Below, one piece after another: positions 11,197-56,984 of a DNA stretch of 64,000 nucleotides. The DNA is from Escherichia phage vB_EcoS_Uz-1. Every line of letters starts with the position of its first letter. Within the stretch, counting starts at the first letter, position 1. The notes under the pieces are model-generated. The model was not told where the DNA came from, searched no databases, and worked only from the letters and a program-made list of their open reading frames with translations. The stretch is from sequence record OP312987.1; one strand, 5' to 3'. The position numbers and the translations under genes are program-made.

Positions 11197-13850
11197 ATGG
11201 GCTTATTCAGTGGGAAGACCAAAGTATACGTAGCATCCTCTGTCTATAACATGGCAGGGGATATACATAAGCGTCCAAACTATATGAAGACTGTAGTCAT
11301 CGGTAAGATTGTTGCTGATACAGGATTCACTATGGCAGATACTATCTCTGATAGTTATCTGAATGGACCGGGTATTCGTATGCGACTGTTCTCCAGCTGG
11401 AGTAAGAACCACTATGACTCAGAAGTTGGTATGGCAGGAGCTTCATTAGGTGTGCTGGCAAAGATTGACCCTACTGTTATAGAGGGTCAAATTACCCCAC
11501 CTGCTGGAGAATCAGTCTATGTTCAGGCAGCAGAGATTGGCTTTGCTGACTTTGAGCAATGGTGTGACCAGTATCTTTATGAGAATGCTCCAAGTCGAAT
11601 CATGGAACGATTCGACATAGACATTGATGAAGATACCAATGAAATTACTATGACCTCCCTTGATGGAGGTTCTACCATTACATTCACACCTACTAACTTT
11701 GAACCAGGTGCTTTATATCTCTATGCTGATTACTCATTCTATAAGTCCCCGGCTACCAATCCACCGGTAGTAGGACCGACTACTGTCTATGATGATGAAG
11801 ATGACTTACCGTCTACTTTGTTGTGGACTACCATCTCAAGTGATACGACAGCTAATACAACCAATCTTACTAAGACTATACAGACCCATTCTGTTTACTC
11901 TGATGGTAGGCCGGATGAAGACAGTACTGTTACTGAACCAAGTGTGGATAACTGGAACTCTTATGTTAAGGTTTACCGTAGAGGATTCACTGAAAAGCCT
12001 GATGACGTAACTGTAGTTGTATCTGACAGAGTAATGACTCATACAAAGTTTGGTGAGGTTCAATCCAGTACTACTGTAACTACCAATGTTGTTAATTTAG
12101 GTGGTGGTGTTACTCGCACTGACACAATCACCACAACTACAGAGACACTGGTTCGTAAGTACTCATCCCAGACTACTCGTACTGATACTGAGATGACTGC
12201 TGTTGGTACACCTAAGATGCTTATCTATAAGCAGAACTCTGGCAACGTTGCACTTGATTCCCTGTTTGAGACTGAAGCTACTGATAATCGATTCTACCAT
12301 TTATTCCAATCAGGAATGATAAACAATGGGTAGAGAATGACCCAATCTATCCTCACTGTAAGAAGGCACTCTATAAAGCTACTGGTGGTAAGCTCAATAA
12401 AGTAGTGACGGAGCTTAAGAAGAATGACGACATAGGTGATATTCAATACATCTATGGTACATTTGGTGTATCTCTTAATACTCCAGAAGATACGGCTAAG
12501 GAATACATCTACCGTTTCTTTCAGATGGCTACTGAAGCATTCCCACCTGACCCAACTTACCCTACATTGGAAGCAGTGATTGCAGGTTATCAGGCAGCAA
12601 ATGATGCAGTCGATGCATACGTAGAATGGTGGAACAGGCAGGAAGGTCAGATTGTTGGAACACCTCCATCTCTTCCAGAATACCCTGTTATACCTAAGCG
12701 AGAGTTTAGGATACATAGTAATAAGCAGTATAAGTACGACATGACCATTGGTTGGAACTACGTGTCTGAAACTACCCATTCCGGTGAAGCATGGGCTGGT
12801 GCTAAGCAAGGACAACTTCGAGCCAGATATGCAGGAGATATAACTCTTACCCGTAAGAACATACGTACTGCTAGTACCTACTGCTATGCTAACAAACTAG
12901 AAGTTACCACTACGTTTTATTCTATGCAGGAATACGAGTTACTTTGGCAGGATGGTAATGACACTTACCGTAAACTTAGAGTACTGGGTCTAAATCACAA
13001 CAATAGGGTATATAAGAATAAATCAGTAAGTATTGATGTTGCCGAAGCAATGGGAGATGCAGAGGAGAGTGGGTTCATTATCCCACTACACACTAATATT
13101 TACCGTTCAATGTCACTGGTTCGTAGTACACAACTGTCTACTGCCTGTTCCTACTTAGTGATGAACTCATACAAGAAAGTTAAGCAGAAATGGTATCAAA
13201 CCTCTGCTTTTAAGATTGTGGTCGTTGTAGTTGCTGTCGTTGTATCTGTATTCACTATGGGTACGGGTGGTGCAGGTATACTTGGGGCATATGGTGCAGT
13301 TGGTGCATCTCTGGGTTTTGTTGGATTAGCTGCTGTAATAGTTGGTGCTGTAGCAAACGCCATAGCTGCAATGATTCTGGTATCCATTATTACTAAAGTA
13401 TCTACTTCACTGTTCGGTGATAAGCTAGGTTTTATCATTGCTGCTATTGCCTCAATGGTAGCCATGAACGTTGGTACTGCTTTGTCTACTGGTACATCCT
13501 TATCCTCCCTAGCTGGTGAAATGATGAATGCTCAAAACATCATGCAACTTACCAGTTCGGTAGGTAATGGTATTAGTCAGTATATTAATGCATCCACGGC
13601 TGCTACTATTCAGAAAGCAGAGAATGTAATGCAGCAGTACAATACTGATATGATGGCAATCAATAAGCAGTATGAAGAAATGTTTGGTACTGCTGGGCAG
13701 GGTGTAATTGACCCTATGCAATTTGTGTCAATGGAGTCGTTGGATTCTTTCCTCTCACGTACTCTTATGACTGGTTCGGATATAGCTGACATGTCTTTAA
13801 ACATGGTTGGCAGCTACTCTGATATGACTCTTAATACAGACCTTGTTTAA
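11197..13850 (+). CDS. large virion protein with a long G/A-rich hydrophobic segment; apparently split by a frameshift near 12290-12400
   Basis: Track ORFs 11197..12333 and 12405..13850 (GTG start). The downstream frame is open and protein-like for about 39 codons before its annotated start, overlapping the end of the upstream ORF. Combined length about 884 aa. Hydrophobic glycine-zipper-like stretch encoded around 13196-13470. Confidence 0.4.
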
Positions 13851-14319: not shown

Positions 14320-15186
14320 ATGGCTCAGATAACCTGGCGTAATGTTGATGCACCTAACTTCTCTGGAGTTGGTGACAGCATTCGCACATTTGGCAACATG
14401 ATTGGTAACGCCACCTCCGGCTTAAGTGATGCACTGGGTAATTTCCAGAACGCTGCCAAGCAGGAGGCTGGTAATGCCGTCATGATGAATGCTATGCAGT
14501 ACCAAGACCCAACTGAGTATCGTAATGCATTAGCATCTGGTGCACTGTTTCAGGGGGTTGACCCTTCATTGGTAAACCAGCGTACTCTCCAGAATCTGGA
14601 TGAGCGAGCAGGTACTCTTCTGTCTCAGCAAGGTCAGCAGGGGATCAATGACTACAATGCTTATCGTTTTGGTCGTTTACAGAATACTGACTCTGCATTA
14701 GATAATGCTTCCCCAGCTATTCGTTTACTGTCTGAGGCTTATCAGTCTGGTGACCAGAATCGTATTAATGCTGCATTAGGTCAGACCCGTGAGGCATTAT
14801 CTGCATTACCTGCTGACCAACAACTGGATATGTTGAGTCGTCTACAAGGACAAGGTGGTCAGGCTATTAACCAAGCACAGAATCGTTTTGATTTGGGTGT
14901 GGCTCAACGTAATGATGCGGATAGTCAGGCAGCTATGGGTGTAATGTCACAGATTACCCGTGGTTCTGAGAACCTAATGATGCTCGTTTGTTGGCAGAGG
15001 CGTATAGTAAAAACCTGTCCCCTGTTGCACAGGCACGTTTACAGGAAATGCTTGCTCGTGCATACCGGTGTTTATGGTAATAATGTTGGTGCTACGTCTG
15101 CTCCGGGTACTGCTGGTACTCGTCAGGGTTCCCCTTATGATGTTACTTACCAATTTGCTGGTACATCTACCCTATTACTCAAATGA
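14320..15186 (+). CDS. hypothetical virion protein; possible internal compensated frameshift pair near 14975 and 15070
   Basis: 288-aa ORF. Between about 14975 and 15070 the annotated frame reads as garbage (LMMLVCWQRRIVKTCPLLHRHVYRKCLLVH) while the +1 frame reads protein-like (EPNDARLLAEAYSKNLSPVAQARLQEMLARAY) and is bounded by stops. Confidence 0.4.
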   Translation: MAQITWRNVDAPNFSGVGDSIRTFGNMIGNATSGLSDALGNFQNAAKQEAGNAVMMNAMQYQDPTEYRNALASGALFQGVDPSLVNQRTLQNLDERAGTLLSQQGQQGINDYNAYRFGRLQNTDSALDNASPAIRLLSEAYQSGDQNRINAALGQTREALSALPADQQLDMLSRLQGQGGQAINQAQNRFDLGVAQRNDADSQAAMGVMSQITRGSENLMMLVCWQRRIVKTCPLLHRHVYRKCLLVHTGVYGNNVGATSAPGTAGTRQGSPYDVTYQFAGTSTLLLK

Positions 15187-15446
15187 GTATTGGTGATGTA
15201 ATTAAACACCAGGATGGTATGAAGACGAACCAAGGTGCTTCACCTGTTGGTGCATTCCAAATTAACCAAGCTACTCTGAAAGACTTCGCTCCTAAAGTTC
15301 TTGGTTCAGATTGGCAAAGCCAGCCTCTTTCTCCTGAGAACCAGGATAAGATTGGTAAGGCTATCTTTGAGGCCCGTAAGAATGGCAACCTTAAAGATAC
15401 CTGGGCTGCACTTCCTAACTCTACCCAGGTGCTTATAAGGATATGA
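15183..15446 (+). CDS. hypothetical protein, ATGA-coupled to neighbours
   Basis: 87-aa ORF; start overlaps the upstream stop (ATGA) and its stop overlaps the next start. Confidence 0.4.
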   Translation: MSIGDVIKHQDGMKTNQGASPVGAFQINQATLKDFAPKVLGSDWQSQPLSPENQDKIGKAIFEARKNGNLKDTWAALPNSTQVLIRI

Positions 15447-16279
15447 CTTGGGAACAGATTAAACCTGTTATTGCTCAAGCCGAGGTGGGAGCTGACCCAC
15501 TCGCTATGGTTCAGAATAATCAAGGTAATCAGGCAGTATCTACTCTGGCTCAGGGTATGATTGGTACACGTTCTATGCAGGATAACACCGGTAGTCTTAA
15601 CACTGACTTCCTTGGTACTGTCACTGATAATACCCCAGTAGGTGAGATTGCTAACCGTTTGTTGGAAGGTGACTTTAAAGGTGCTGACCGTAACTGGGTA
15701 CTGAACCGACTGAATGATATTTCTCAACGTGGGAATATGTCACCAGCTATGGCTGCTGCTGTTATGCAACGTGCACAGACCGGTGTTCCAGAAGGTTATA
15801 TTAGTCGTGCTATTGATGCAGTTAACCCATTCATTACCAATGAAGCTGGTAATGGTATGCGTCTTAATGACCGTCTGGTAGATCAGTTAATTGAGGGTGT
15901 ACAACGTGGTGAACCACTGGAAGGTAGTGTGCGTAATCTTGGACGTGCTCAAGCTATGCAGAATATTCAGGCAGCACAGACTGCTTATGATGCTGCTGTA
16001 GCTGCACTGACAAATACCCAGAACAAGATTAACACTGGACAAACTGGACTTACTGCACTGTTACCTGCACGTCAGGAAGCTGTTACTAAAGCTGCTGCAA
16101 TGCTTCAAGCTGCCCAAGCTCAAGTACAGGCTGACCCAGCTAACCTGGCTCCAAGAGGTTTTCAGTCTCAGGCTAGTGTGGACAGGGCACGAGCCAAGGA
16201 AGATGAAGAACGTGCTGCACGATACTTACGTCAGGCACAAGGTTTGCCTGAGTATATGCAACCAAGACAAAATCGGTAA
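15443..16279 (+). CDS. hypothetical virion protein immediately upstream of the virion RNAP
   Basis: 278-aa ORF, A/Q-rich, ending 76 nt before the giant polymerase gene; may belong with the two preceding ORFs as one gene. Confidence 0.4.
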   Translation: MTWEQIKPVIAQAEVGADPLAMVQNNQGNQAVSTLAQGMIGTRSMQDNTGSLNTDFLGTVTDNTPVGEIANRLLEGDFKGADRNWVLNRLNDISQRGNMSPAMAAAVMQRAQTGVPEGYISRAIDAVNPFITNEAGNGMRLNDRLVDQLIEGVQRGEPLEGSVRNLGRAQAMQNIQAAQTAYDAAVAALTNTQNKINTGQTGLTALLPARQEAVTKAAAMLQAAQAQVQADPANLAPRGFQSQASVDRARAKEDEERAARYLRQAQGLPEYMQPRQNR

Positions 16280-44950: not shown

Positions 44951-47516
44951 TTAGTTACCTTTCAGTTTATTTAGACGATTACGGTAGAGGGACTTAAACC
45001 CAGGAATATCCTCTGGATTCTTCTTAAGGTGTTTGACCAAACTACCTAAGTCCAGCGTCTGTAGGATGTCATTTTTATTCCAGCTATAACTGAATAATTC
45101 TTTGTAATCATTAAGTATTTTAAAGTACTTATGATTACGCGGATTAGTCATTATTGCATATGGCTCTAAGTCATCCACTGACTTAATACAACCCATTTCA
45201 ACAAGTTTTTCTTTGTTGTCGTGTGGTCGATTCCGTAGAAAGTCATATGCCCATTCATATTCTGGTTTAAAAATCAGATTCTGTAATGGTTTGAAGGTTA
45301 GACCAGTATGTCTAGGATTTCCCAGTATTCCCTGTCATCCAGTCCTACGTATTCCAGAATACCAATACGGTGTTCAGTAACATATTTCTTGAAGCCTTTA
45401 CTGGTAATAACTGGCATCAGCTCCATAAAGCGAACATCATCAATGTGGATAGCACCTCTCCGTTTGGCCTTGTTAGCTTCGATTTGATTACGGCAGACAA
45501 CAGTCTCTGCTCTCATCTCATCAGATAACTCATACCATTTCCACATGGTTCCAATTCGAGCAGTTACTGGGCTACCTGAACCAACCTGATTGGCTAGTAC
45601 GTAGTACTTAGGTTGCTCTACTTCAACGAAACCAGACTTATCATGGCGACTTGGGTCTGCAAATTCCTTCTGAATATAAGGCTTTGGTTCCCAATCCCCA
45701 TTTTTATTCCGTATTTGGGTAGCACCAAGAACTGCATTCAATGAAATCAGAGAATTAGTTTTACCTCCTGCCTTGGTTTTATTGGCAGCGATTGTCTTAG
45801 ACCGTTTCTCAGCAGCTATCTTAGCTTTCTCTCTACGGAAGTTAGTTGGTTTGTCCCACTCATTATATTGAGTAAGGTCGATTACCCGATAACCCATAGC
45901 AGTGAACTTAGCCACAGCTTCTTCTGCTGCACCCTTCTTAGGTCCAACGACGTGAACAAAAGCTGTACGCTCCAGGTCACCTCGATCGTACTCAGGGAAG
46001 TACGAGAAAGAGTCTGCACAGTCAGACAAACGTCGGGTAACTACAACGTTTTTGGTAGTGAATATGCCAATACTTTGGTGGGAGTTATTGTATATCCTAA
46101 AGTAGTCAGTAAGTTTACCTTTTACCAAGTCAACACGGTTACCTTGATTCATTATGTAACCAGACCACTTAATACCAGAGGTTTTCAAAGCAGCCAGCTG
46201 AGGTAAGTGCAGATGGCGATATACTAATTCCGAGAATGGGGAGTATGTACTTTCTTCACGAGTATCCTTAAGAGCACGCATAGCCTTACCATACAGTTTC
46301 TTAAGACCTGCGTATTCAGGACGAGCTAATAATGCCTTATTGGATAAATTACGCCAGTGCTTGATGTAATGCTTACGTTGCTTAGCCCACAAACTAGAGG
46401 ACATATAGCGTTGAACAGTTCTGTCTGTAACAGCACCCAGGAATGATGGATACTCCCAGAAGCGAGTAGAGGATTTAGAAGCATATTCTTCAACCTGCTT
46501 AATGGCTTCAGGAATCTTAGCCTTAATCTCTTTCTCCATACGGTCTACTAAATCTACACATAGAGTAGTAATACCATCGTCGGTTAACTTCTGGTTAGAC
46601 AGCGTTTCTCGACTAGGAGCAATAGCTAAAGTGTCTGGTGCAGCCTGAACTACTAGATTAGAAGCACCAATAATATTCATGAAGTTGAGGATAAGGCCTA
46701 CAGCTTCTTCACTAGCTGGGCTGGATACAATTGGTACATTACATTACCGTAGCGAACGTATATGTTACTGCTACCCATATAGCCTTGATACCATCTATCA
46801 GACATATCATATGAACCAGGTTCAAATGGCATGCCTAGTGTATCCAGTAGAGTGTAGTCGCCTTGTTGAATACTATTACTCTCGTCTGTTCTAATGAGTT
46901 TGGGAGTACTTAGCTCAGCTTTAATTTCACCGTTAAACACAATTGATTTGATGTAATGAATAAAGGTATTTAAATCATGTTTGCCTAACTGGAATTTAAC
47001 TTCCAGACCAGATTCCTCAGTAGGAATACCAGTAATAATAGGAACAATACCAGGCTTACCATCATTCTCAATTGCAGCCTTAGCTACGTTATATACAGAC
47101 ATCTTCCCTTGGTTCCATGATGTAACCTGGAAGCTATCTGTATAAGCGAATGGGGATTTACATCCCAGACCAAAGCCACCAGTAACACTACTGTTGGACT
47201 TCTTGGTAGATGCACCATAGACACCATAAATGGAGCCAATGAGTTCATCTTGGATACCGTTACCGAAGTCACGGAAGGTAATAAAGTTGTCAGTATCAAT
47301 GGTAATACGGATAGGAGTATCAGTCTTACCTGCTTCAATATGGGCATCCCAACTGTTACAGATAGTTTCACGGACTACTGCCAGAGTAGGGTTGTTATAC
47401 AAGGAAGTACTTAATACATGAAAGAATGCCGGGTCATCAGAGATGCCAAAGGCGATTGCTTCTTTGCCACCCAGTGTCGCTGAAGTGGCTGATTGATTGG
47501 TATCTGCAACTAACAT
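44951..47516 (-). CDS. rIIA-like protein with GHKL-type ATPase N-terminal domain; two apparent frameshifts
   Basis: Fragments 46698..47516, 45298..46680 and 44951..45196, about 855 aa combined. GHKL-like motifs ETICNSWDA, RDFGNGI, GGFGLG. Adjacent frames are open and protein-like across both junctions; the second is at an A3 run (TGGGAAATCC, coding strand) near 45315-45324. Confidence 0.55.
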
Positions 47517-50972: not shown

Positions 50973-51479
50973 TTAATTAAGCCGTCTAGCAGCTACTGGT
51001 TTATCTTCCTGGTTCTGATACTTGCCATTGTAATTAGCAGGTTCTTGAACCAGATGAAATAATACTTGAGCTATCCCAGCACCAGCCGGGATATGCAATT
51101 TCTTACGACCATGATAGACCAGTTCGAGGGTAAGATACCCTTTCCATCCTGGTTCTATTACGGTATTGAACACTGATAATGCACGTCTTGCCCACGTAGA
51201 CTTATCGTGAACGATGGCTACACAGGACGGGGACATATTAAACTTCTCAATTGCTGAGGCCAAGGCGAACTTACCGAGATGGCGTGATACTTGATTTCCA
51301 TCAACGACTTTCACCATTGGAATCAACCCAAATAAGCGATAGAAGGTAATATCCTGTTTGATACGAATATCATAACCAGCTTCACCTAATCCGTAGCTTA
51401 CACCATGCTTAGATACCTTACGGTCTGGGACATCCAGCAGCTGAGATGAACGGTATAGAGAATTACCATTAACAACCAT
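50973..51479 (-). CDS. dCTP deaminase/dUTPase-family protein
   Basis: SYGLGEAGYDIRI and GWKGYLTLEL motifs resemble the dCTP deaminase/dUTPase fold. Confidence 0.55.
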   Translation of the reverse strand: MVVNGNSLYRSSQLLDVPDRKVSKHGVSYGLGEAGYDIRIKQDITFYRLFGLIPMVKVVDGNQVSRHLGKFALASAIEKFNMSPSCVAIVHDKSTWARRALSVFNTVIEPGWKGYLTLELVYHGRKKLHIPAGAGIAQVLFHLVQEPANYNGKYQNQEDKPVAARRLN

Positions 51480-52651
51480 TATTTCATTCCTTTAGGGATA
51501 TGAACTACCTCCCCAAAAGGTACGGTAGCATTGGGATTATTCAGAACACACCAGATGATAGGAATATCAAATGGCAATTCTTCCATTGGACGAACATACA
51601 TATCGGAGAATATGATTGCAGCGGTTGGCTTATTCTTAATAATCCAATCACGTACTGGTTCCAGGTTTGTACCACCACGACCTGTAATCTTAATCTCTTC
51701 AAATGTATCTTCTTCAGTGATGTCTATCTCTTCTTGGATAATATCGTCGAAGGTAATTAGGGACATCTTCTTAGGATTGAACTGGCTTTTAACGTAGGCA
51801 ACCTCTGAGTTAAATCGCAGAGAGTCTGCACTACTAATAGAACCAGATACATCTTCAAAGTAGGCCAGGTGTCGTAAACGTCCTTCATCATCTTCCATAG
51901 AAGGTAGATAGATATCAGTAAAACGACGGTTAGGTCTGGCCCATGTATAACGTGATTCATCAATGTCGGTAAAAAGTTCATCAGAACTTCTTGCCATGGA
52001 ACCACTGGTTTAAGAAATTGGGTAATAACCTCTTCCATACGACCAGCACCCTTACCTGGCATCTGTCCACCAGCCATTTTCTGGCTTTGCATTGCACGTA
52101 CTACGTTGTTGACAACAGCACCCTGGGACTGCCCGGAGTGGGGATTTCATGTCGCCAGCAAGACCTGCTCCAGCACCCCCTGACGGCTTCTGCCTTTTCT
52201 GAGGGTTCTTCATCAAGTCATCGTAGATATCTTCTTCGACCCATCCTTTATATTGAGGGTCTTTGCAAATACCTTTGTCGATACCAGTGAATTTGTAACC
52301 ATCTTCTTCTAACTGAAGGTTAATGAAGTGGTCACATGCCTGGTTCCAGACTTCTGGGTCACGGCTTCCACGACGGATGTCATGTAGATATGCCACATGC
52401 CAGAGTTCGTGCATTAACACTGTTTCTCTTGCGTCTGGACACATCCAGATAAAGAAATCTGGATTGAAATGGAGTTCTATCCCATCGGTACATGCAGTGG
52501 GACAATCCTCGCGTTTCCACGAGAACTTAAGACTACATAGTAATGAACCAAAGAACGCAGCGCTTCGACCTAGGAAAGCCTGAGCTTGAATACGATCATA
52601 TTCACGCATGAGTTGTTCATCTGTGAGACTATGCGTAGGTATACTGTTCAT
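51479..52651 (-). CDS. metallopeptidase-like (HExxH) plus VWA domain protein; two apparent frameshifts
   Basis: Fragments 52052..52651 (HELWH motif), 51757..52092 and 51479..51997 (VWA MIDAS-like DVSGS). First break at a C4 run on the coding strand (plus strand GGGG at 52140..52143). Confidence 0.5.
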
Positions 52652-53129
52652 TAGGGTGCTCCATGATTGGGGTGATAGCCATACAGTTTTTCAGCCGCTT
52701 TTCTGGCGTCTATGGCATCTTGCTTGTCTGCAAAAGTGCCCAAACTTACCAGACGTGTTCCATCAGATATAGCTGCATACCAGATGGAATCACGCTTGTG
52801 CCAGTACACACCAGTAACACCACTGGAATTAGTTACCCGTTTCTTTTGGTTTCTGGTGTTAGTTCTGCTGTCTACTAATCTAAAGTTACTTAGAAGGTTA
52901 TTAACCCTATTGTGGTCTAGGTGATCAATCTGCATACCTTTCGGGATAGGTCCATTGTGCATTTCCCATATGACACGGTGCACTTTGTAACTTTTGCCCT
53001 TATAGTTGAAGCATAAATAACCATCGCTATTTAGATTACCTACCTTTTTCCAGCAATGCCTCTGGAGGCTACTGTAACTTTCCAGAATAGCTCCCCATTT
53101 ATGTAAACGAGTATGTCATTCCAGTTCAT
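52651..53129 (-). CDS. HNH homing endonuclease with AP2 domain; disrupted by a 1-nt deletion in an A-run
   Basis: True start ATG 53129 gives MNWNDILVYINGELFWKVTVASRGIAGKR then stop; the downstream frame continues VGNLNSDGYLCFNYKGKSYKVHRVIWEMHNGPIPKGMQIDHLDHNR (HNH_3) and an AP2-like C-terminus. The frames join at GGAAAAAGG (plus strand T5 at 53045..53049). Confidence 0.6.
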
Positions 53130-53136
53130 GTTGTGA

Positions 53137-54188
53137 TTATCCGTGAATGTAGCGGGAGATGTTAGCAGCAGCCTTACGCCATTCAGGGGTAGCCTGAAGT
53201 TCTGGCAATGCTCTGCCTACTGTACGAAAGTACAGAATCTTATGAGTGAACGTTTTAAAGCGTTCAATGTACTGAAGAACATCAGCGAAGTTTTCCTCAG
53301 TAGTTTTGTTAGCCAGATGGTTAACGGTAGCCCAACACAGGTTATTATCTTCCGGTAGTGTACAGCCCATAGGGTCTTTGACTACCTTATCAATCGTAAT
53401 GATACGATTGTACACCTGTGTAAATTGAACAAACTCTGTAGCCTTACCAGCAGTAACGTGTCCTGCATAGTAGATAGAATCTTCATCAGGCAGAGCACCT
53501 TCAGGACGGTTCTTGAGGTCTTTGTTAACAAAGTCCCAGGTACGAGGGCAACAGAACGTTTTGTTCTTATGTGCTGGGTCGAAGTCATGCAGATAACCGG
53601 GGTTAGCATGTAAGAATGCAACCAGACGTTCATCCATTGTTGTGGAATCATTACGTCTTCAACAAAGATGTCGAAGTTAAGTTCCATTTCGAAGTGGACA
53701 ACACGGGACTGCATTGCAGTACCCAGTGGGTTAACGATGGCACGGTCAGTAGCTTTGTTACCAGCACAGATAATCATCACATTAGGATGAAGTTTTTTCT
53801 GACCAGTCATACGGTCTAGAATCAGTTTATATGCAGCAGCTATTACTTCTTTGCGAGCAGATGGGAACTCATCAAGGAATAAGAGCCAGCCATTATATCC
53901 TTCCGGTATTTTATCCCCTTCAATTGGGAATAAGTCAGCGAATGGAATAAACTCTGCACGGTCACCATTACGGAATGGTAAGCCAGAAAGGTCTTCCGGG
54001 GCAGAAGTTGACAGACGATGGTCTATCAACTTCATACCAAATTCTTCTGCAATAGAACGAATGATTGCAGATTTACCCATGCCAGGTGATGAAGTCAGGA
54101 ACGGTACGTTACCTGCTTTCAAAGCACGGATAATAAAGTTACGAGCTTGACGTGAATTACATACGGTCAAGGAGTCAATGCTTGCCAT
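53137..54188 (-). CDS. MoxR-like AAA+ ATPase; N- and C-terminal parts in different frames
   Basis: Walker A SSPGMGKS, Walker B LLFLDEF, sensor-1-like ICAGN in 54188..~53650; a protein-like C-terminal ORF 53137..53637 in another frame, while the N-terminal frame continues as low-complexity garbage. Could instead be two genes. Confidence 0.5.
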
Positions 54189-54222
54189 TTACTTACTCTC
54201 CTAAAGCTAATGGAATTACTGA

Positions 54223-54552
54223 TTAAGATTTAGTGCAGGGATAGGCCTTGTGTACTGAGTACACAACAATTTGAGATGTATTCTTCATCTTGAGGATTGC
54301 AGAGTCATAAATAACCACTTTGGCAATCTTAGGCAGAATGACCGAATATTTAATACCTTCTGGAACACAGTTATCTGTGCTCTCGATGTAAGAGATCATA
54401 CTGCCCATGAAGAAACCTTGTCCGAACGCATCACGAGTGTCATCCAGGTAAGCCTGAGCACCTTCCAGAATTGGTTCTGGTTCAATTGCTTGTGCACTTG
54501 GGGCTAAAGCTATCAGTGCAGCTACTGCAATACCTTTAAGTAAAGTTTTCAT
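54223..54552 (-). CDS. small secreted protein with Sec-type signal peptide
   Basis: N-terminus MKTLLKGIAVAALIALAPSAQA with an AxA cleavage-like site; 109 aa. Confidence 0.5.
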   Translation of the reverse strand: MKTLLKGIAVAALIALAPSAQAIEPEPILEGAQAYLDDTRDAFGQGFFMGSMISYIESTDNCVPEGIKYSVILPKIAKVVIYDSAILKMKNTSQIVVYSVHKAYPCTKS

Positions 54553-54738
54553 TTAGTTACCTTTCATTTCATTGAGTTTAAGTACACCGATAGGGGTTAA
54601 TGACCACCCAAGACCAGCATTGAACTGAACTAAGCCCAGCTTCTTAAGAGACTGTGCGGTTTTGTTATTACGGTTGCTGGTGGCAGAACCACCTTGAACC
54701 ATACGAAGGAAGATTGCTTGGGACTGAGTTAATTTCAA
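54553..54738 (-). CDS. hypothetical protein
   Basis: 61-aa ORF, start overlapping the upstream stop. Confidence 0.35.
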   Translation of the reverse strand: MKLTQSQAIFLRMVQGGSATSNRNNKTAQSLKKLGLVQFNAGLGWSLTPIGVLKLNEMKGN

Positions 54739-54944
54739 AGGTAATATCCTTCCAGGTTTATTGGTGTTACAAATGTATTTGCTGATAGATAGAATGATTT
54801 ACCAGTTTCTACAGCAACAGCAGCAGGTTTGCCTTCAGGTAGGTGAATCTTTAAACACACTGTCTGGTTATAAATAAAACCATTAGCAGGCTCTACATCA
54901 CCGAAAGTTACTTCATTGTTCTCAGAACGATTTGTTACTTTCAC
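54735..54944 (-). CDS. hypothetical protein
   Basis: 69-aa ORF, ATGA-coupled. Confidence 0.35.
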   Translation of the reverse strand: MKVTNRSENNEVTFGDVEPANGFIYNQTVCLKIHLPEGKPAAVAVETGKSFYLSANTFVTPINLEGYYL

Positions 54945-55201
54945 TCATCTTCTCCTTCATCCGGTAGCGGTGATAAATCTACACCTAAATGCTTCAGGCG
55001 TTTCTCTAAGTCATCTACCTTATTTTGATAAAATGACAGTAGCTCAGGTAGTATTCTTGTACGAGCTTGCGGTCCTAAATCCTTATCGTAAAAGGATACT
55101 TTCACCATATGTGGAGCTTTCTTCAAACTAGCTAATTGCTGTCGGTTGTCGTTGTATTCTTCATACAATTTCTCAACCAAATGTAGATTGTGGATATTCA
55201 T
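54941..55201 (-). CDS. hypothetical protein
   Basis: 86-aa ORF, ATGA-coupled. Confidence 0.4.
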   Translation of the reverse strand: MNIHNLHLVEKLYEEYNDNRQQLASLKKAPHMVKVSFYDKDLGPQARTRILPELLSFYQNKVDDLEKRLKHLGVDLSPLPDEGEDE

Positions 55202-55386
55202 TTCTTCTCCGGTACGAACTGCATTACACAGCTTTGATTACGAGGGATATTAAGTTCACATTCATGCTTGAGGGTTTGTGTTACAGAGTTTGGAGTAGAA
55301 CCAAAATAGGTATTGGAGATAGCTACGAATCCTGCACCTATTAAACCACCTAGTAAGAATGAGAAGAATGCAATCTCTTTATACAT
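55198..55386 (-). CDS. small membrane protein
   Basis: 62-aa ORF with an N-terminal TM helix. Confidence 0.4.
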   Translation of the reverse strand: MYKEIAFFSFLLGGLIGAGFVAISNTYFGSTPNSVTQTLKHECELNIPRNQSCVMQFVPEKK

Positions 55387-55446
55387 TTCCTGGCTCCAGA
55401 TGTAGAAAACCCAGTCAATGCTGGGGTTTATCTATCAGTTTATACT

Positions 55447-55707
55447 TTATAGACCATGTGGTCGGCATAGACTACCCGAACCAAACGAACGGTGTCCAAG
55501 TCGGCCCAGGATTAGATTGCTTACTTCAGCAGCAGCACGACTGAATGCTTTAAAGTCAAAAACTACGATACCAAAGAGTGGGGCTGCAATAGCAGCTACC
55601 ATGATTGGAGTCAGGTCAACCAGTGACATACCCAAGATTAAGTGAGCAGCGTAGGCAATAATACCCATTCCAACACCACAACCATATCCAATAGCAATTT
55701 TACGCAT
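55447..55707 (-). CDS. small membrane protein
   Basis: 86-aa ORF with two G/A-rich hydrophobic helices. Confidence 0.4.
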   Translation of the reverse strand: MRKIAIGYGCGVGMGIIAYAAHLILGMSLVDLTPIMVAAIAAPLFGIVVFDFKAFSRAAAEVSNLILGRLGHRSFGSGSLCRPHGL

Positions 55708-55844
55708 AGTTACCTTCTTAGTTAGTAAGTTGATTTACATATTCATATAACAGACAAACAATAGTCAAAAAAGACTCCCTTCAATAGGGAGGTCAAACTT
55801 GAGGGTTTCATTTCAGGGTTTATAACCCCAAACAAAGAATACCC

Positions 55845-56678
55845 TTATTCTGCAACAGTAATAGCGATGGTTACATCGACCTTACCGTTGGTAACTACTA
55901 CAGAAGTAGCTTCACCAGCAGCTACAGGTTTAACTGTCAGTACATTACCAGCAATGGTAGCTGTAGCACGGGCAGAATCTGGGGCAGTCTTGATAGACAA
56001 AGTACCCGCAGATGAACCAACAGGCATAGCAATAATGGTTACAGTCTTACCATCAGTGGTATCGTCAGCAACAGACAGAGCCAGTGAAGCAGGAGTAGCT
56101 ACCAGTGAGCTTGCTTCGTAGTAGCCTACAGCCAGCAGTGATTCATCTTCTACAGTGGTTCCATTAGCATCAGTAACAATCACTTTATAAGTACCAGCAG
56201 AAGCAGCGGTTACGTCATTAAGAGTCAACGTTGCAGTAGCAGCAGATGCGTTATCACCAGAATCAATATCAGCGAATGCTGCACCAGCAGTATCAGCTTT
56301 GAATTGCCATTTATAAGTAAATGGTGCTTTACCGCCTGCTACATCAACATGCCAGTTAATGTCTTCGCCTTCGATAGCGGAGACTAAACGGGGCAGTTTG
56401 GTAGCAATAGTTAATCGTGGGGTAGCTTTCATATCAATAGAGATGGACTGCATATCCACGATGTTGTTAGGCCAGAAGCCTTCTTCAGCTGGGTCTTTAG
56501 CAGAACGTTTATATAGCAGATCACGTACACCATGAAAGATAACTAAGCTATCTGGGTAAGTGGCATCTGGATGTACAAAAGTACCTACTTCTACGGAACC
56601 ACCTGGGATAGAACCACTGGCATCCAGTACAGTTGCGACATTGGTGGTTTTGTTAAAACCTACTTTTAAAGTTGGCAT
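55845..56678 (-). CDS. Ig-like domain protein; capsid decoration protein candidate (N4 gp17-like by position)
   Basis: Start re-derived at ATG 56678 with GAGGA RBS. Ig-like patterns (APFTYKWQFK ... GTYKVIVTDANGT) and a Big_2-like C-terminus, adjacent to the RNAP II genes. Confidence 0.5.
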   Translation of the reverse strand: MPTLKVGFNKTTNVATVLDASGSIPGGSVEVGTFVHPDATYPDSLVIFHGVRDLLYKRSAKDPAEEGFWPNNIVDMQSISIDMKATPRLTIATKLPRLVSAIEGEDINWHVDVAGGKAPFTYKWQFKADTAGAAFADIDSGDNASAATATLTLNDVTAASAGTYKVIVTDANGTTVEDESLLAVGYYEASSLVATPASLALSVADDTTDGKTVTIIAMPVGSSAGTLSIKTAPDSARATATIAGNVLTVKPVAAGEATSVVVTNGKVDVTIAITVAE

Positions 56679-56724
56679 ATCAATTTCCTCATAAGTAAAT
56701 AGCAGGATTAGTATACATGACATG

Positions 56725-56753
56725 TAAAAAATAAACCCTCCGTTAAGAGGGTT
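56725..56753 (-). terminator. intrinsic terminator (minus strand)
   Basis: AACCCTC-CGTTAA-GAGGGTT followed on the minus strand by TTTATTTTTT. Confidence 0.5.
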
Positions 56754-56934
56754 AGTTGTTTACACAGTAGATAGCGAAAGCTATCCATCCTGCCATTACA
56801 AAGCATCCTAGTGAATATGCCCCATAGTAGCAGTAAGCAAACTTAGACTTGTGGGCACGGACTATCGTAGCCAGAACCAGTACAGATAAAACTATCAGTA
56901 TTAACTGAGAGATTACTTCAAAAGGGATTAGCAT
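56752..56934 (-). CDS. small membrane protein
   Basis: Track ORF 56752..56967; internal start at 56934 (MLIPFEV) preferred because the first 11 codons overlap a terminator hairpin. Confidence 0.35.
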   Translation of the reverse strand: MLIPFEVISQLILIVLSVLVLATIVRAHKSKFAYCYYGAYSLGCFVMAGWIAFAIYCVNN

Positions 56935-56951
56935 AGTTGTTACCTCCAAGC

Positions 56952-56984
56952 AAAAAATATGCCTCACTCCCGAAGGAATGAGGC
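56952..56984 (-). terminator. intrinsic terminator (minus strand) after RNAP II large subunit gene
   Basis: GCCTCA-CTCCCGAAGGAA-TGAGGC followed on the minus strand by ATATTTTTTG. Confidence 0.45.

Follow-up and report, generated by a model that had tools for sequence, protein, structure and literature searches.

A plastic accessory cassette in a Bp4-like coliphage encodes a putative periplasmic protein of Rap1a/Tai4a-like fold

In this study we analyse six short open reading frames (ORFs) at 54223-55707 of a 64,000-nucleotide stretch of Escherichia phage vB_EcoS_Uz-1 (OP312987.1; the whole stretch is referred to as the window), which we label A to F in the order in which they run from gp24 towards gp17. 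Our comparisons indicate that the six genes are not one system or machine but a plastic accessory cassette, and that protein A belongs to a distant, phage-specific branch of the Rap1a/Tai4a fold, an assignment that is well supported by its modelled structure and cysteine pattern and marginally supported by its sequence. We believe, at slightly below an even chance, that the locus is best explained as such a cassette in which A would be a periplasmic inhibitor of an incoming cell-wall endopeptidase. Databases already carry machine labels for A, and what we offer is a structural identification plus a hypothesis, not a demonstrated mechanism. An earlier note, made from the DNA alone, had described six short ORFs between an ATPase gene and a decoration gene; its coordinates are exact, and the flanking genes are gp24 and gp17. 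The note had also suggested that such proteins are often superinfection-exclusion or host-takeover factors, a generic reading that is too coarse because the cluster is mosaic, A is identifiable as a Rap1a/Tai4a-fold protein and E travels with gp24/gp25. All six ORFs lie on the minus strand and correspond to orf70-75 of Escherichia phage Bp4:

54223-54552, minus strand: A (Bp4 orf70, G7C gp17.3 family), a 109-residue precursor of a predicted exported five-helix Rap1a/Tai4a-fold protein
54553-54738, minus strand: B (Bp4 orf71, G7C gp17.2 family), 61 residues, TTG start; phrog_7665 (function unknown)
54735-54944, minus strand: C (Bp4 orf72), 69 residues, GTG start, predicted soluble, sporadic accessory gene; phrog_18793
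54941-55201, minus strand: D (Bp4 orf73), 86 residues, acidic C-terminus, predicted soluble, sporadic accessory gene; phrog_19185
55198-55386, minus strand: E (Bp4 orf74, G7C gp17.1 family), 62 residues, one predicted N-terminal transmembrane helix; phrog_7508
55447-55707, minus strand: F (Bp4 orf75), 86 residues, predicted two-helix membrane hairpin, sporadic accessory gene; phrog_26763

The window can be assigned to a Bp4-like Gamaleyavirus (Schitoviridae, Enquatrovirinae), an N4-like virulent coliphage: its region 54100-55900 shares 99.5% DNA identity and an identical gene order with Bp4, and 56 phage records match this region. We regard the six ORFs as real genes rather than chance ORFs because they are conserved in related phages with ratios of nonsynonymous to synonymous substitution rates (dN/dS) of 0.05-0.29, like those of the flanking gp17 and gp24; conservation in related genomes, whose absence the earlier note had named as a refutation, thus extends to all six. 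With homologues in IME11, St11Ph5, 24-32N, G7C, phi G17 and UE-S5b as partners, dN/dS was 0.13-0.29 for B, 0.11 for C, 0.13-0.16 for D, 0.05-0.17 for E and 0.16 for F, and about 0.2 for A inside its Bp4-type allele. These values indicate purifying selection on all six genes. In addition, a Shine-Dalgarno-like sequence lies 5' of each ORF, and the junctions are tight, with start/stop overlaps of ATGA at E/D, GTGA at D/C and TTGA at C/B, whereas B and A abut as TAA followed by ATG. Spacers of 60 base pairs (bp) and 137 bp separate F from E and gp17 from F, respectively. The description of the ORFs as 'ATGA-coupled or tightly spaced' therefore holds for the tight spacing, but only the E/D junction is ATGA and the F-E gap is 60 bp.

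Topology was assigned from Kyte-Doolittle windows and the -3/-1 rule. B is basic (net charge +7) and has no hydrophobic segment or signal peptide, and C and D, the latter with an acidic tail, have neither of these features. E has one N-terminal hydrophobic helix (residues 4-25; Kyte-Doolittle score over 19 residues, KD19, 2.28). F has two hydrophobic segments by hydropathy, with 14% Gly and 14% Ala, and its basic N-terminus and basic C-terminal tail suggest a membrane hairpin with both ends in the cytoplasm (N-in/C-in). The annotators of the KP8 homologues gave matching helix counts, two transmembrane helices for the F homologue and a single pass for the E homologue. A cluster of small secreted and membrane proteins, as first described, is thus seen in A, E and F and not in B, C and D, which lack an export signal or hydrophobic segment; and of the two small glycine-rich two-helix membrane proteins it was said to include, F (Gly/Ala-rich, two helices) fits, while E is single-pass. 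Scanning the six proteins against NCBIfam and PADLOC brought no meaningful match, and anti-phage defence hidden Markov models (HMMs) of PADLOC-DB did not match any of them at E up to 1. Pfam searches with the window proteins B-F and their divergent homologues returned noise only. B, C, D and F had no match in Pfam, NCBIfam, PADLOC or any annotated PHROG, and for F no homology to any named family, Imm and class II holin types included, was found in the Pfam, PHROG and NCBIfam scans.

First, the distribution of the six genes argues for a plastic cassette. In tblastn searches against 50,697 phage records, A was found in 56, none of them outside the Gamaleyavirus group; B in 81, from Gamaleyavirus, Kaypoctavirus and one Erwinia phage, with 55 records reaching at least 80% identity; and E in 99, spread over several genera. 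C occurs in 19 records, all Gamaleyavirus, D in 21, limited to some Gamaleyavirus genomes, and F likewise in 21 (10 Escherichia and 11 Klebsiella), its homologues in KP8-like Klebsiella phages being about 52% identical and also adjoining gp17. G7C, the source of the names gp17.1-17.3, carries E-B-A only, as do phi G17 and Jgk1; IME11 has F and C and lacks D; and St11Ph5, 24-32N and UE-S5b have D and lack C and F. E, B and A are retained in every Gamaleyavirus record found. This pattern is best described as a genus-wide core of E, B and A, with F, D and C as inserts that come and go.

More broadly, the gp17-gp24 interval appears to be an accessory-gene hot spot in the subfamily, with many of its genes apparently envelope-directed. 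For example, IME11 (IME11_55), St11Ph5, Jgk1 and N4 carry at this locus a phrog_1510 gene, which is annotated as superinfection exclusion and is like N4 gp18 and P22 gp17 (PF17420); none of the six window proteins matches this family, and the 137-bp gp17-F spacer is too short to hold a member. Homing endonucleases are scattered in the interval of Jgk1, KP8, Frozen and N4, and the N4 interval (locus L017, 169-2409) contains gp18, the two-helix membrane protein gp19, the 278-residue lipoprotein gp20, gp21, an HNH endonuclease and the two-helix protein gp23, which is similar to KP8 gp031. The accessory genes of these Enquatrovirinae (N4 gp18-gp23, KP8 gp027-gp034 and Frozen gp29-gp36) are like those of the window in encoding small membrane proteins, lipoproteins or secreted proteins, with homing endonucleases at the same position. 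They differ in that N4 has no homologue of A, B or E and that the secreted proteins of KP8 and Frozen are unrelated to Rap1a, and apparently also to each other. In both KP8 (locus L008, 2930-3663) and Frozen (locus L012, 2480-3024), a 119-residue Sec-signal protein follows within one or two genes after an E-like gene and occupies the position of A. Because these phages place unrelated signal-peptide proteins there, an exported-protein slot upstream of gp24 seems to be conserved while its occupant is not.

Second, our analysis of A supports its assignment to the Rap1a/Tai4a fold. A Sec signal peptide had been predicted in the ORF at 54223-54552, and we confirm it as follows:

54487-54552, minus strand: signal peptide of A, residues 1-22, MKTLLKGIAVAALIALAPSAQA, predicted cleavage after AQA and before IE

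The n-region of the signal (MKTLLK) is basic, its hydrophobic core spans 12 residues (KD19 1.66) and its cleavage site is of the A-x-A type (AQA followed by IE); by rule-based prediction the signal is kept in 121 of 121 relatives. An AlphaFold2 (AF2) model of mature A built from 121 sequences has five helices, with a predicted local distance difference test (pLDDT) score of 94.9 and a predicted template modelling score (pTM) of 0.86. It supersedes a first model from 12 near-identical sequences, which was unreliable (pLDDT 77 in one model and about 45 in the other four) and for which the Foldseek results were only suggestive. Among 45 Foldseek matches in the PDB, only eight chains lie above a template modelling (TM) score of 0.35, and all are Agrobacterium tumefaciens Tai4 or Serratia Rap1a, with query TM-scores (TMq) of 0.62-0.69 and a probability of up to 0.84 for Tai4 (6ije, 6ijf) and a TMq of about 0.60 for Rap1a (3zfi, 4bi8). 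Rap1a has five helices and resides in the periplasm after cleavage of its signal sequence, and its folding requires a disulfide that joins Cys78 of the a2-a3 loop to Cys122 close to the C-terminus (PMC3852654). In A, the loop that connects helices 2 and 3 holds Cys62, and Cys106 is four residues away from the C-terminus; neither cysteine varies among 121 sequences, and their spacing of 44 residues equals that of Cys78-Cys122. Moreover, Rap1a and A. tumefaciens Tai4, whose sequences were taken from PDB entries, have the pattern ...C...(F/Y)PC in common with A. When 12 diverse A relatives were scanned singly, all 12 matched Pfam Rap1a, below threshold and with a best E of 5.5e-5, and no other family recurred.

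Machine labels point the same way: the Bp4 protein is entered in UniProt as 'Rap1a immunity protein domain-containing protein', and the G7C-type allele is called 'Tai4' in several GenBank records. We found no literature study of gp17.1-17.3, nor of Tai4/Rap1a homologues in phages. The expectation that these genes are 'typically uncharacterised' is too coarse for A, which is a probable distant member of the Rap1a/Tai4a fold and was already machine-labelled. As a separate observation, BFVD holds three more 'Rap1a immunity protein domain-containing' proteins, from uncultured Caudovirales phages, with TMq of 0.45-0.65, and Rap1a-like proteins may therefore be wider among phages than Gamaleyavirus.

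The closest known system is Rap1a itself (SMA2260 of Serratia marcescens; PF18602; 3zfi, 4bi8), the 'Tai4a' immunity protein against Ssp1, a T6SS (type VI secretion system) peptidoglycan endopeptidase. A resembles it in the cleaved Sec signal (predicted in A), in the small mature size (87 versus about 101 residues), in the compact five-helix fold (by model in A, TMq about 0.60), in pairing an a2-a3 loop cysteine with a second one that follows 44 residues later, four to six residues before the C-terminus, in a C-terminal (Y/F)PC motif, and in a variable surface that coincides with the effector-contact segment of Rap1a. Unlike Rap1a, A comes from a virulent phage and lacks neighbouring effector or T6SS genes, and its sequence similarity to Rap1a lies below the Pfam threshold and is limited, in hhalign, to the C-terminal helix. 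A. tumefaciens Tai4, known from the Tae4-Tai4 complex (6ije, 6ijf), is the best structural match to A and has the same W/N-C ... FPC cysteine pattern as Rap1a. However, its sequence identity to A is 9-12%, and it is one half of a chromosomal effector-immunity pair inside a T6SS cluster; A, by contrast, is a phage-borne orphan.

Within Gamaleyavirus, A also exists as deeply diverged alleles. Compared with G7C or UE-S5b, A of the window is 37% identical, whereas the neighbours E, B and gp24 are 93-97% identical, and the A alleles of near-identical phages are only 29-45% identical. The Bp4-type allele accounts for 22 records at 80% identity or more, and the G7C type and others for 34 records at 33-42%. 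Clustering at 90% identity gave at least 131 clusters for the A family (E-value limit 10) and 33 for E (limit 0.001). An exhaustive HMMER search for A in 1.84 billion representative proteins yielded seven clusters, one of them spurious: a 2887-residue metagenomic protein (P0012) with about 25 tandem repeats, whose match to mature A at E 2.6e-29 over 39 residues (AGAFFV.FLLGSSASP...) seems to be a chance one inflated by the repeats. Of the relatives, the two that diverge most are on phage-like contigs, and one of them lies directly upstream of a gp24/gp25/dCTP-deaminase block on an N4-like contig. These data are best read as old alleles swapped by recombination and not as gene-wide positive selection. 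We then compared A with Rap1a in an ungapped register that is anchored on both cysteines and was checked against the residue names in the Rap1a paper, using S81, Q82, Q84, T85, V86, T87, E90, E94 and R119 as the Ssp1-contact residues of Rap1a. Between the cysteines of G7C-type alleles, the contact-equivalent positions are more variable than the others (1.18 bits versus 0.65 bits; permutation p = 0.02). Since loops are generally the more variable parts, we take this difference as no more than suggestive. Together, the deeply diverged alleles in near-identical backbones and the variability at contact positions would fit a polymorphic partner.

Rap1a and Tai4 act as dimers in the periplasm, where they sterically obstruct peptidoglycan D,L-endopeptidases of the NlpC/P60 type that arrive by type VI secretion (PMC3852654), and the fold of A points to a periplasmic inhibition of a peptidoglycan endopeptidase. 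We propose that A would be exported to the periplasm via its Sec signal and then oxidised, and that, acting like an immunity protein, it would bind and sterically block an NlpC/P60-type peptidoglycan D,L-endopeptidase entering from outside. By homology the likeliest target would be a Tae4/Ssp1-class T6SS effector from neighbouring bacteria, and a hydrolase carried by another phage would be less likely; a host endopeptidase ranks third among the candidates that we considered. The wall of the infected cell would thereby be kept intact until the phage's own GH108 endolysin acts. A target within the phage itself was rejected: according to Pfam the endolysin, with GH108 and PG_binding_3 domains, is a muramidase and the phage has no NlpC/P60 enzyme of its own, and Pfam scans of the internal virion proteins detected no hydrolase domain, NlpC/P60 included. 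The lack of a phage-borne NlpC/P60 enzyme makes an external target for A the more plausible. A more specific proposal, which we regard as possible but doubtful, is that a lytic coliphage exports a polymorphic orphan immunity protein of Rap1a fold against T6SS attack, with alleles that would match effector variants, and that the tail of E partners gp24/gp25.

Several observations weigh against A as such an inhibitor. The sequence link is thin: the match of window A to Pfam Rap1a (PF18602), which spans residues 33-106 and ends on the last profile position at Cys106, has an E of 0.049 and 14.6 bits, below the cut-off of 27.7; the Foldseek E-values are not significant (best 0.56); hhalign of the A family against Rap1a and A. 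tumefaciens Tai4 aligns just the C-terminal 18 columns, with a probability of 6%; and no Rap1a or Tai4 match came up when PDB sequences were searched by phmmer or hmmsearch with A, its family profile and the two relatives that diverge most. All A relatives whose contig was examined are on N4-like or phage-like contigs, most of them directly upstream of gp24, and no bacterial relative was confirmed when 185,579 species genomes of bacteria and archaea were scanned twice, so that the family is not tied to a bacterial effector-immunity locus or cognate pair. The annotations of relatives show no T6SS or effector gene. Gene-wide positive selection is not seen either (dN/dS about 0.2 within the Bp4-type allele), and the variability falls in a loop and at the start of a helix, where variation is common anyway. 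Finally, T6SS immunity benefits a virulent phage with a short cycle less than it benefits a resident bacterium.

Adjacency to effector or T6SS genes is typical of Rap1a/Tai4a genes but not obligatory, since orphan Rap1a genes are known in bacteria. Cronobacter sakazakii, for example, has orphan Rap1a-, Rap2a- and Rap2b-like genes, which are like A in being immunity-type genes without an effector and are regarded as protection from the effectors of other cells in an arms race. Such orphan genes reside in bacterial genomes or resident mobile elements, in contrast to A, which is carried by a lytic phage and would act for one infection cycle only. Rapidly evolving orphan immunity genes have reportedly also been described in gut bacteria, in a preprint.

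Third, we find that E travels with the gp24/gp25 genes. Homologues of E occur in Gamaleyavirus, Klebsiella Kaypoctavirus, Erwinia Johnsonvirus, Gordonclarkvirinae and the jumbo Enterobacter phage SonariX, and their most conserved part is the C-terminus:

55201-55263, minus strand: invariant C-terminal tail of E, residues 42-62, ECELNIPRNQSCVMQFVPEKK

Across 19 homologues, which overall are 44-87% identical to window E, the tail has 16 invariant columns, and the last 20 residues are nearly invariant while the transmembrane halves diverge. A DNA-level element was rejected as the cause: synonymous differences are present, so that the constraint appears to act on the protein, and the invariant 20-residue tail probably binds a conserved partner. 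The side of the membrane on which this would happen is ambiguous, because two conserved cysteines point to a periplasmic tail and a Lys-rich flank after the helix in many homologues points to a cytoplasmic one. In Schitoviridae the E-like gene is always a few genes upstream of gp24. In SonariX (locus L013, 2474-5151), an E-like gene with an ECELNIPRNQ.CVMQFVPE tail lies 3 bp upstream of a gp24-like ATPase gene (38% identity to G7C gp24, E 8e-68), and a gp25-like gene follows two genes later; the E-gp24-gp25 association thus seems to exist outside Schitoviridae as well. In KBNP1711, no gp24 homologue was found within 2.5 kb of the E-like gene. A comparative study counts gp24/gp25 among the N4-like core genes (PMC4193335). 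On account of the adjacency in SonariX and the position upstream of gp24 in Schitoviridae, E may be a partner of the gp24/gp25 module (MoxR-like ATPase and DUF2201 VWA protein), which we offer as a lead and not as a result.

These findings bear on several other explanations of the cassette. One is superinfection exclusion of the kind exerted by T4 Spackle and Imm, in which A would inhibit the wall enzyme of incoming particles and F and/or E would block genome entry; we consider this unlikely. T4 Imm is a small two-helix inner-membrane protein, and F is like it in this respect, but F has no homology to Imm in Pfam or PHROG. For A, two reports supply a precedent in T4 Spackle (gp61.3), a small protein with a signal peptide that resides in the periplasm and inhibits gp5, the tail lysozyme (PMC7677548, PMC7650644). 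A and Spackle are alike as small signal-peptide periplasmic proteins (predicted, in A) of virulent coliphages, and Spackle likewise neutralises a wall-degrading enzyme. However, Spackle targets a lysozyme, whereas the Rap1a fold targets NlpC/P60 endopeptidases, and A does not have the Spackle fold: although Spackle structures are published, no Spackle chain is among the 45 Foldseek PDB matches, and there is no Pfam or PHROG link. The locus itself lends the idea some weight, since the intervals of N4 and IME11 hold a gene of the PHROG superinfection-exclusion family, and that of N4 also a membrane protein and a lipoprotein; moreover, the deeply diverged A alleles could follow different phage enzymes. 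Self-exclusion, on the other hand, would have no visible target, given that no hydrolase domain was detected in the phage's own virion proteins, and Gamaleyavirus is not known to show an exclusion phenotype. E also argues against such a role: because it travels with gp24/gp25 even in the unrelated jumbo phage SonariX, it does not behave like an independent moron or a stand-alone exclusion factor.

Alternatively, the cassette might serve a host takeover of envelope growth, in which A would bind a host NlpC/P60 enzyme (MepS, MepH or NlpC) or another periplasmic host protein and the E tail a conserved partner from host or phage, so that both would reshape wall synthesis in the infected cell. E. 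coli has several periplasmic NlpC/P60 enzymes, and the Rap1a fold blocks the active sites of this class; in addition, the E tail is invariant in phages of Escherichia, Klebsiella, Erwinia and Enterobacter, as would fit a target conserved in enterobacteria. A conserved host target, however, leaves unexplained why A alleles diverge to 29-45% identity in near-identical phages, and Kaypoctavirus and Johnsonvirus put unrelated secreted proteins at the position of A, which makes this explanation distinctly improbable. Nor do we give much credence to the view that the six genes are dispensable cargo at a recombination hot spot, with no shared or envelope role and with the Rap1a resemblance as a relic of fold whose binding function is different or absent. 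The presence/absence mosaic of F, D and C, the scattered homing endonucleases of Jgk1, KP8, Frozen and N4 and the sub-threshold similarity of A to Rap1a are compatible with cargo, but purifying selection on all six genes, the retention of E, B and A in every Gamaleyavirus record found and the persistence of the signal peptide and both cysteines of A in 121 variants speak against it.

The least probable explanation, which we consider very improbable, is lysis-timing control, with A and the small membrane proteins as antiholin-like or endolysin-regulating factors. Class II holins have a hairpin topology with a basic tail, like the one suggested for F. The T4 periplasmic antiholin RI and Spackle are tied to lysis inhibition, which N4 shows too (bioRxiv 10.1101/2025.11.12.688109), but the cassette and the holin-endolysin-spanin genes occupy distant positions on opposite strands, and the endolysin belongs to the GH108 muramidases, not to the NlpC/P60 enzymes. 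N4 has no homologue of A, B or E and its rapid-lysis mutations are so far in lysis-cassette membrane proteins, and G7C carries E-B-A yet is reported to be without lysis inhibition (bioRxiv 10.1101/2025.11.12.688109). We therefore retain, at the strength given above, a plastic accessory cassette with A as a putative inhibitor of an incoming endopeptidase.

The surroundings of the cassette suggest how it may be expressed and include the following features:

53137-54188, minus strand: gp24, MoxR-like AAA ATPase, the downstream flank, starting 34 bp after A and split by a deletion of 1 nucleotide (nt)
55410-55425, minus strand: weak hairpin plus U-run in the 60-bp F-E spacer, from a pattern scan, a doubtful terminator or attenuator
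55775-55791, minus strand: predicted intrinsic terminator after gp17, a stem-loop followed by T6; -13.5 kcal/mol, z = -2.3
55845-56723, minus strand: gp17, Hoc-like decoration protein with an immunoglobulin-like (Ig-like) domain, the upstream flank; phrog_2973 at 5e-101

The match of gp17 to Pfam Ig_3 has 25.4 bits, below the cut-off of 30. The G7C record annotates a stem-loop at the position matching the gp17 terminator, which we take as the probable upstream boundary of the cassette transcription unit. The F-E spacer hairpin was rejected as a terminator, its folding being no better than that of shuffles (z = -0.39). In the 34 bp between A and gp24, folding found no terminator and nothing structured. 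With a terminator after gp17 and none between A and gp24, the cassette appears to open a unit continuing into gp24. In the whole-genome annotation of a relative, the gp17-gp24 interval shares its strand with both phage RNA polymerases and the replication genes, and the holin-endolysin-spanin cassette lies at a distance on the opposite strand. The six are probably middle genes, a timing based on the strand shared with the RNA polymerase and replication genes; the scope of our promoter scan stopped short of N4 middle promoters.

Some further observations concern the neighbouring genes. In IME11 and G7C gp24 is one gene of 1053 nt, whereas in the window it is two overlapping ORFs on the minus strand (53382-54188 and 53137-53637), owing to a frameshift near 53636 where one G is lost from a GGG run (CAATGGGATG to CAATGGATG). 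The Bp4 RefSeq record has the same change, and the second ORF restarts at an ATG exactly on the shift point; the split could be either a homopolymer sequencing error or genuine. Likewise gp25 (DUF2201/VWA-like; 51479-52983, minus strand) is in separate pieces at 52052-52651 and 51479-51997, the former abutted by a small HNH/AP2-like endonuclease ORF at 52651-52983. In G7C the HNH gene gp24.1 sits between gp24 and an unbroken gp25, and homing endonucleases seem to move around the gp24/gp25 block. Elsewhere in the window, the stretches 11197-13850 (plus strand), 14320-16279 (plus strand) and 45298-47516 (minus strand) are single ORFs in UE-S5b and two adjacent ORFs each here; among them are rIIA and the genes of two internal virion proteins, which lie upstream of the giant virion RNA polymerase. 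Such split long genes suggest more frameshifts or assembly errors in the Bp4-type sequence. Finally, gp16.1 (56752-56967, minus strand), between RNAP2 and gp17, encodes a small two-helix membrane protein of 71 residues from a GTG start (phrog_12530, function unknown), is flanked by terminator-like hairpins at 56961-56984 and 56734-56753 and falls into the same class of small envelope proteins as members of the cassette.

If A neutralises wall-degrading T6SS effectors, virulent phages would join contact-dependent bacterial warfare and protect the virocell, and dense gut communities would then select on A. If A instead blocks the enzymes of other phages, it would be a second structural solution to exclusion of the Spackle type. 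Either outcome would assign a function to a gene that is present in every Gamaleyavirus. In addition, the tail of gp17.1 (E) may provide a handle on the N4 core genes gp24/gp25. Phages of the genus Gamaleyavirus have been isolated against uropathogenic and avian pathogenic E. coli, and A could affect their performance in mixed communities.

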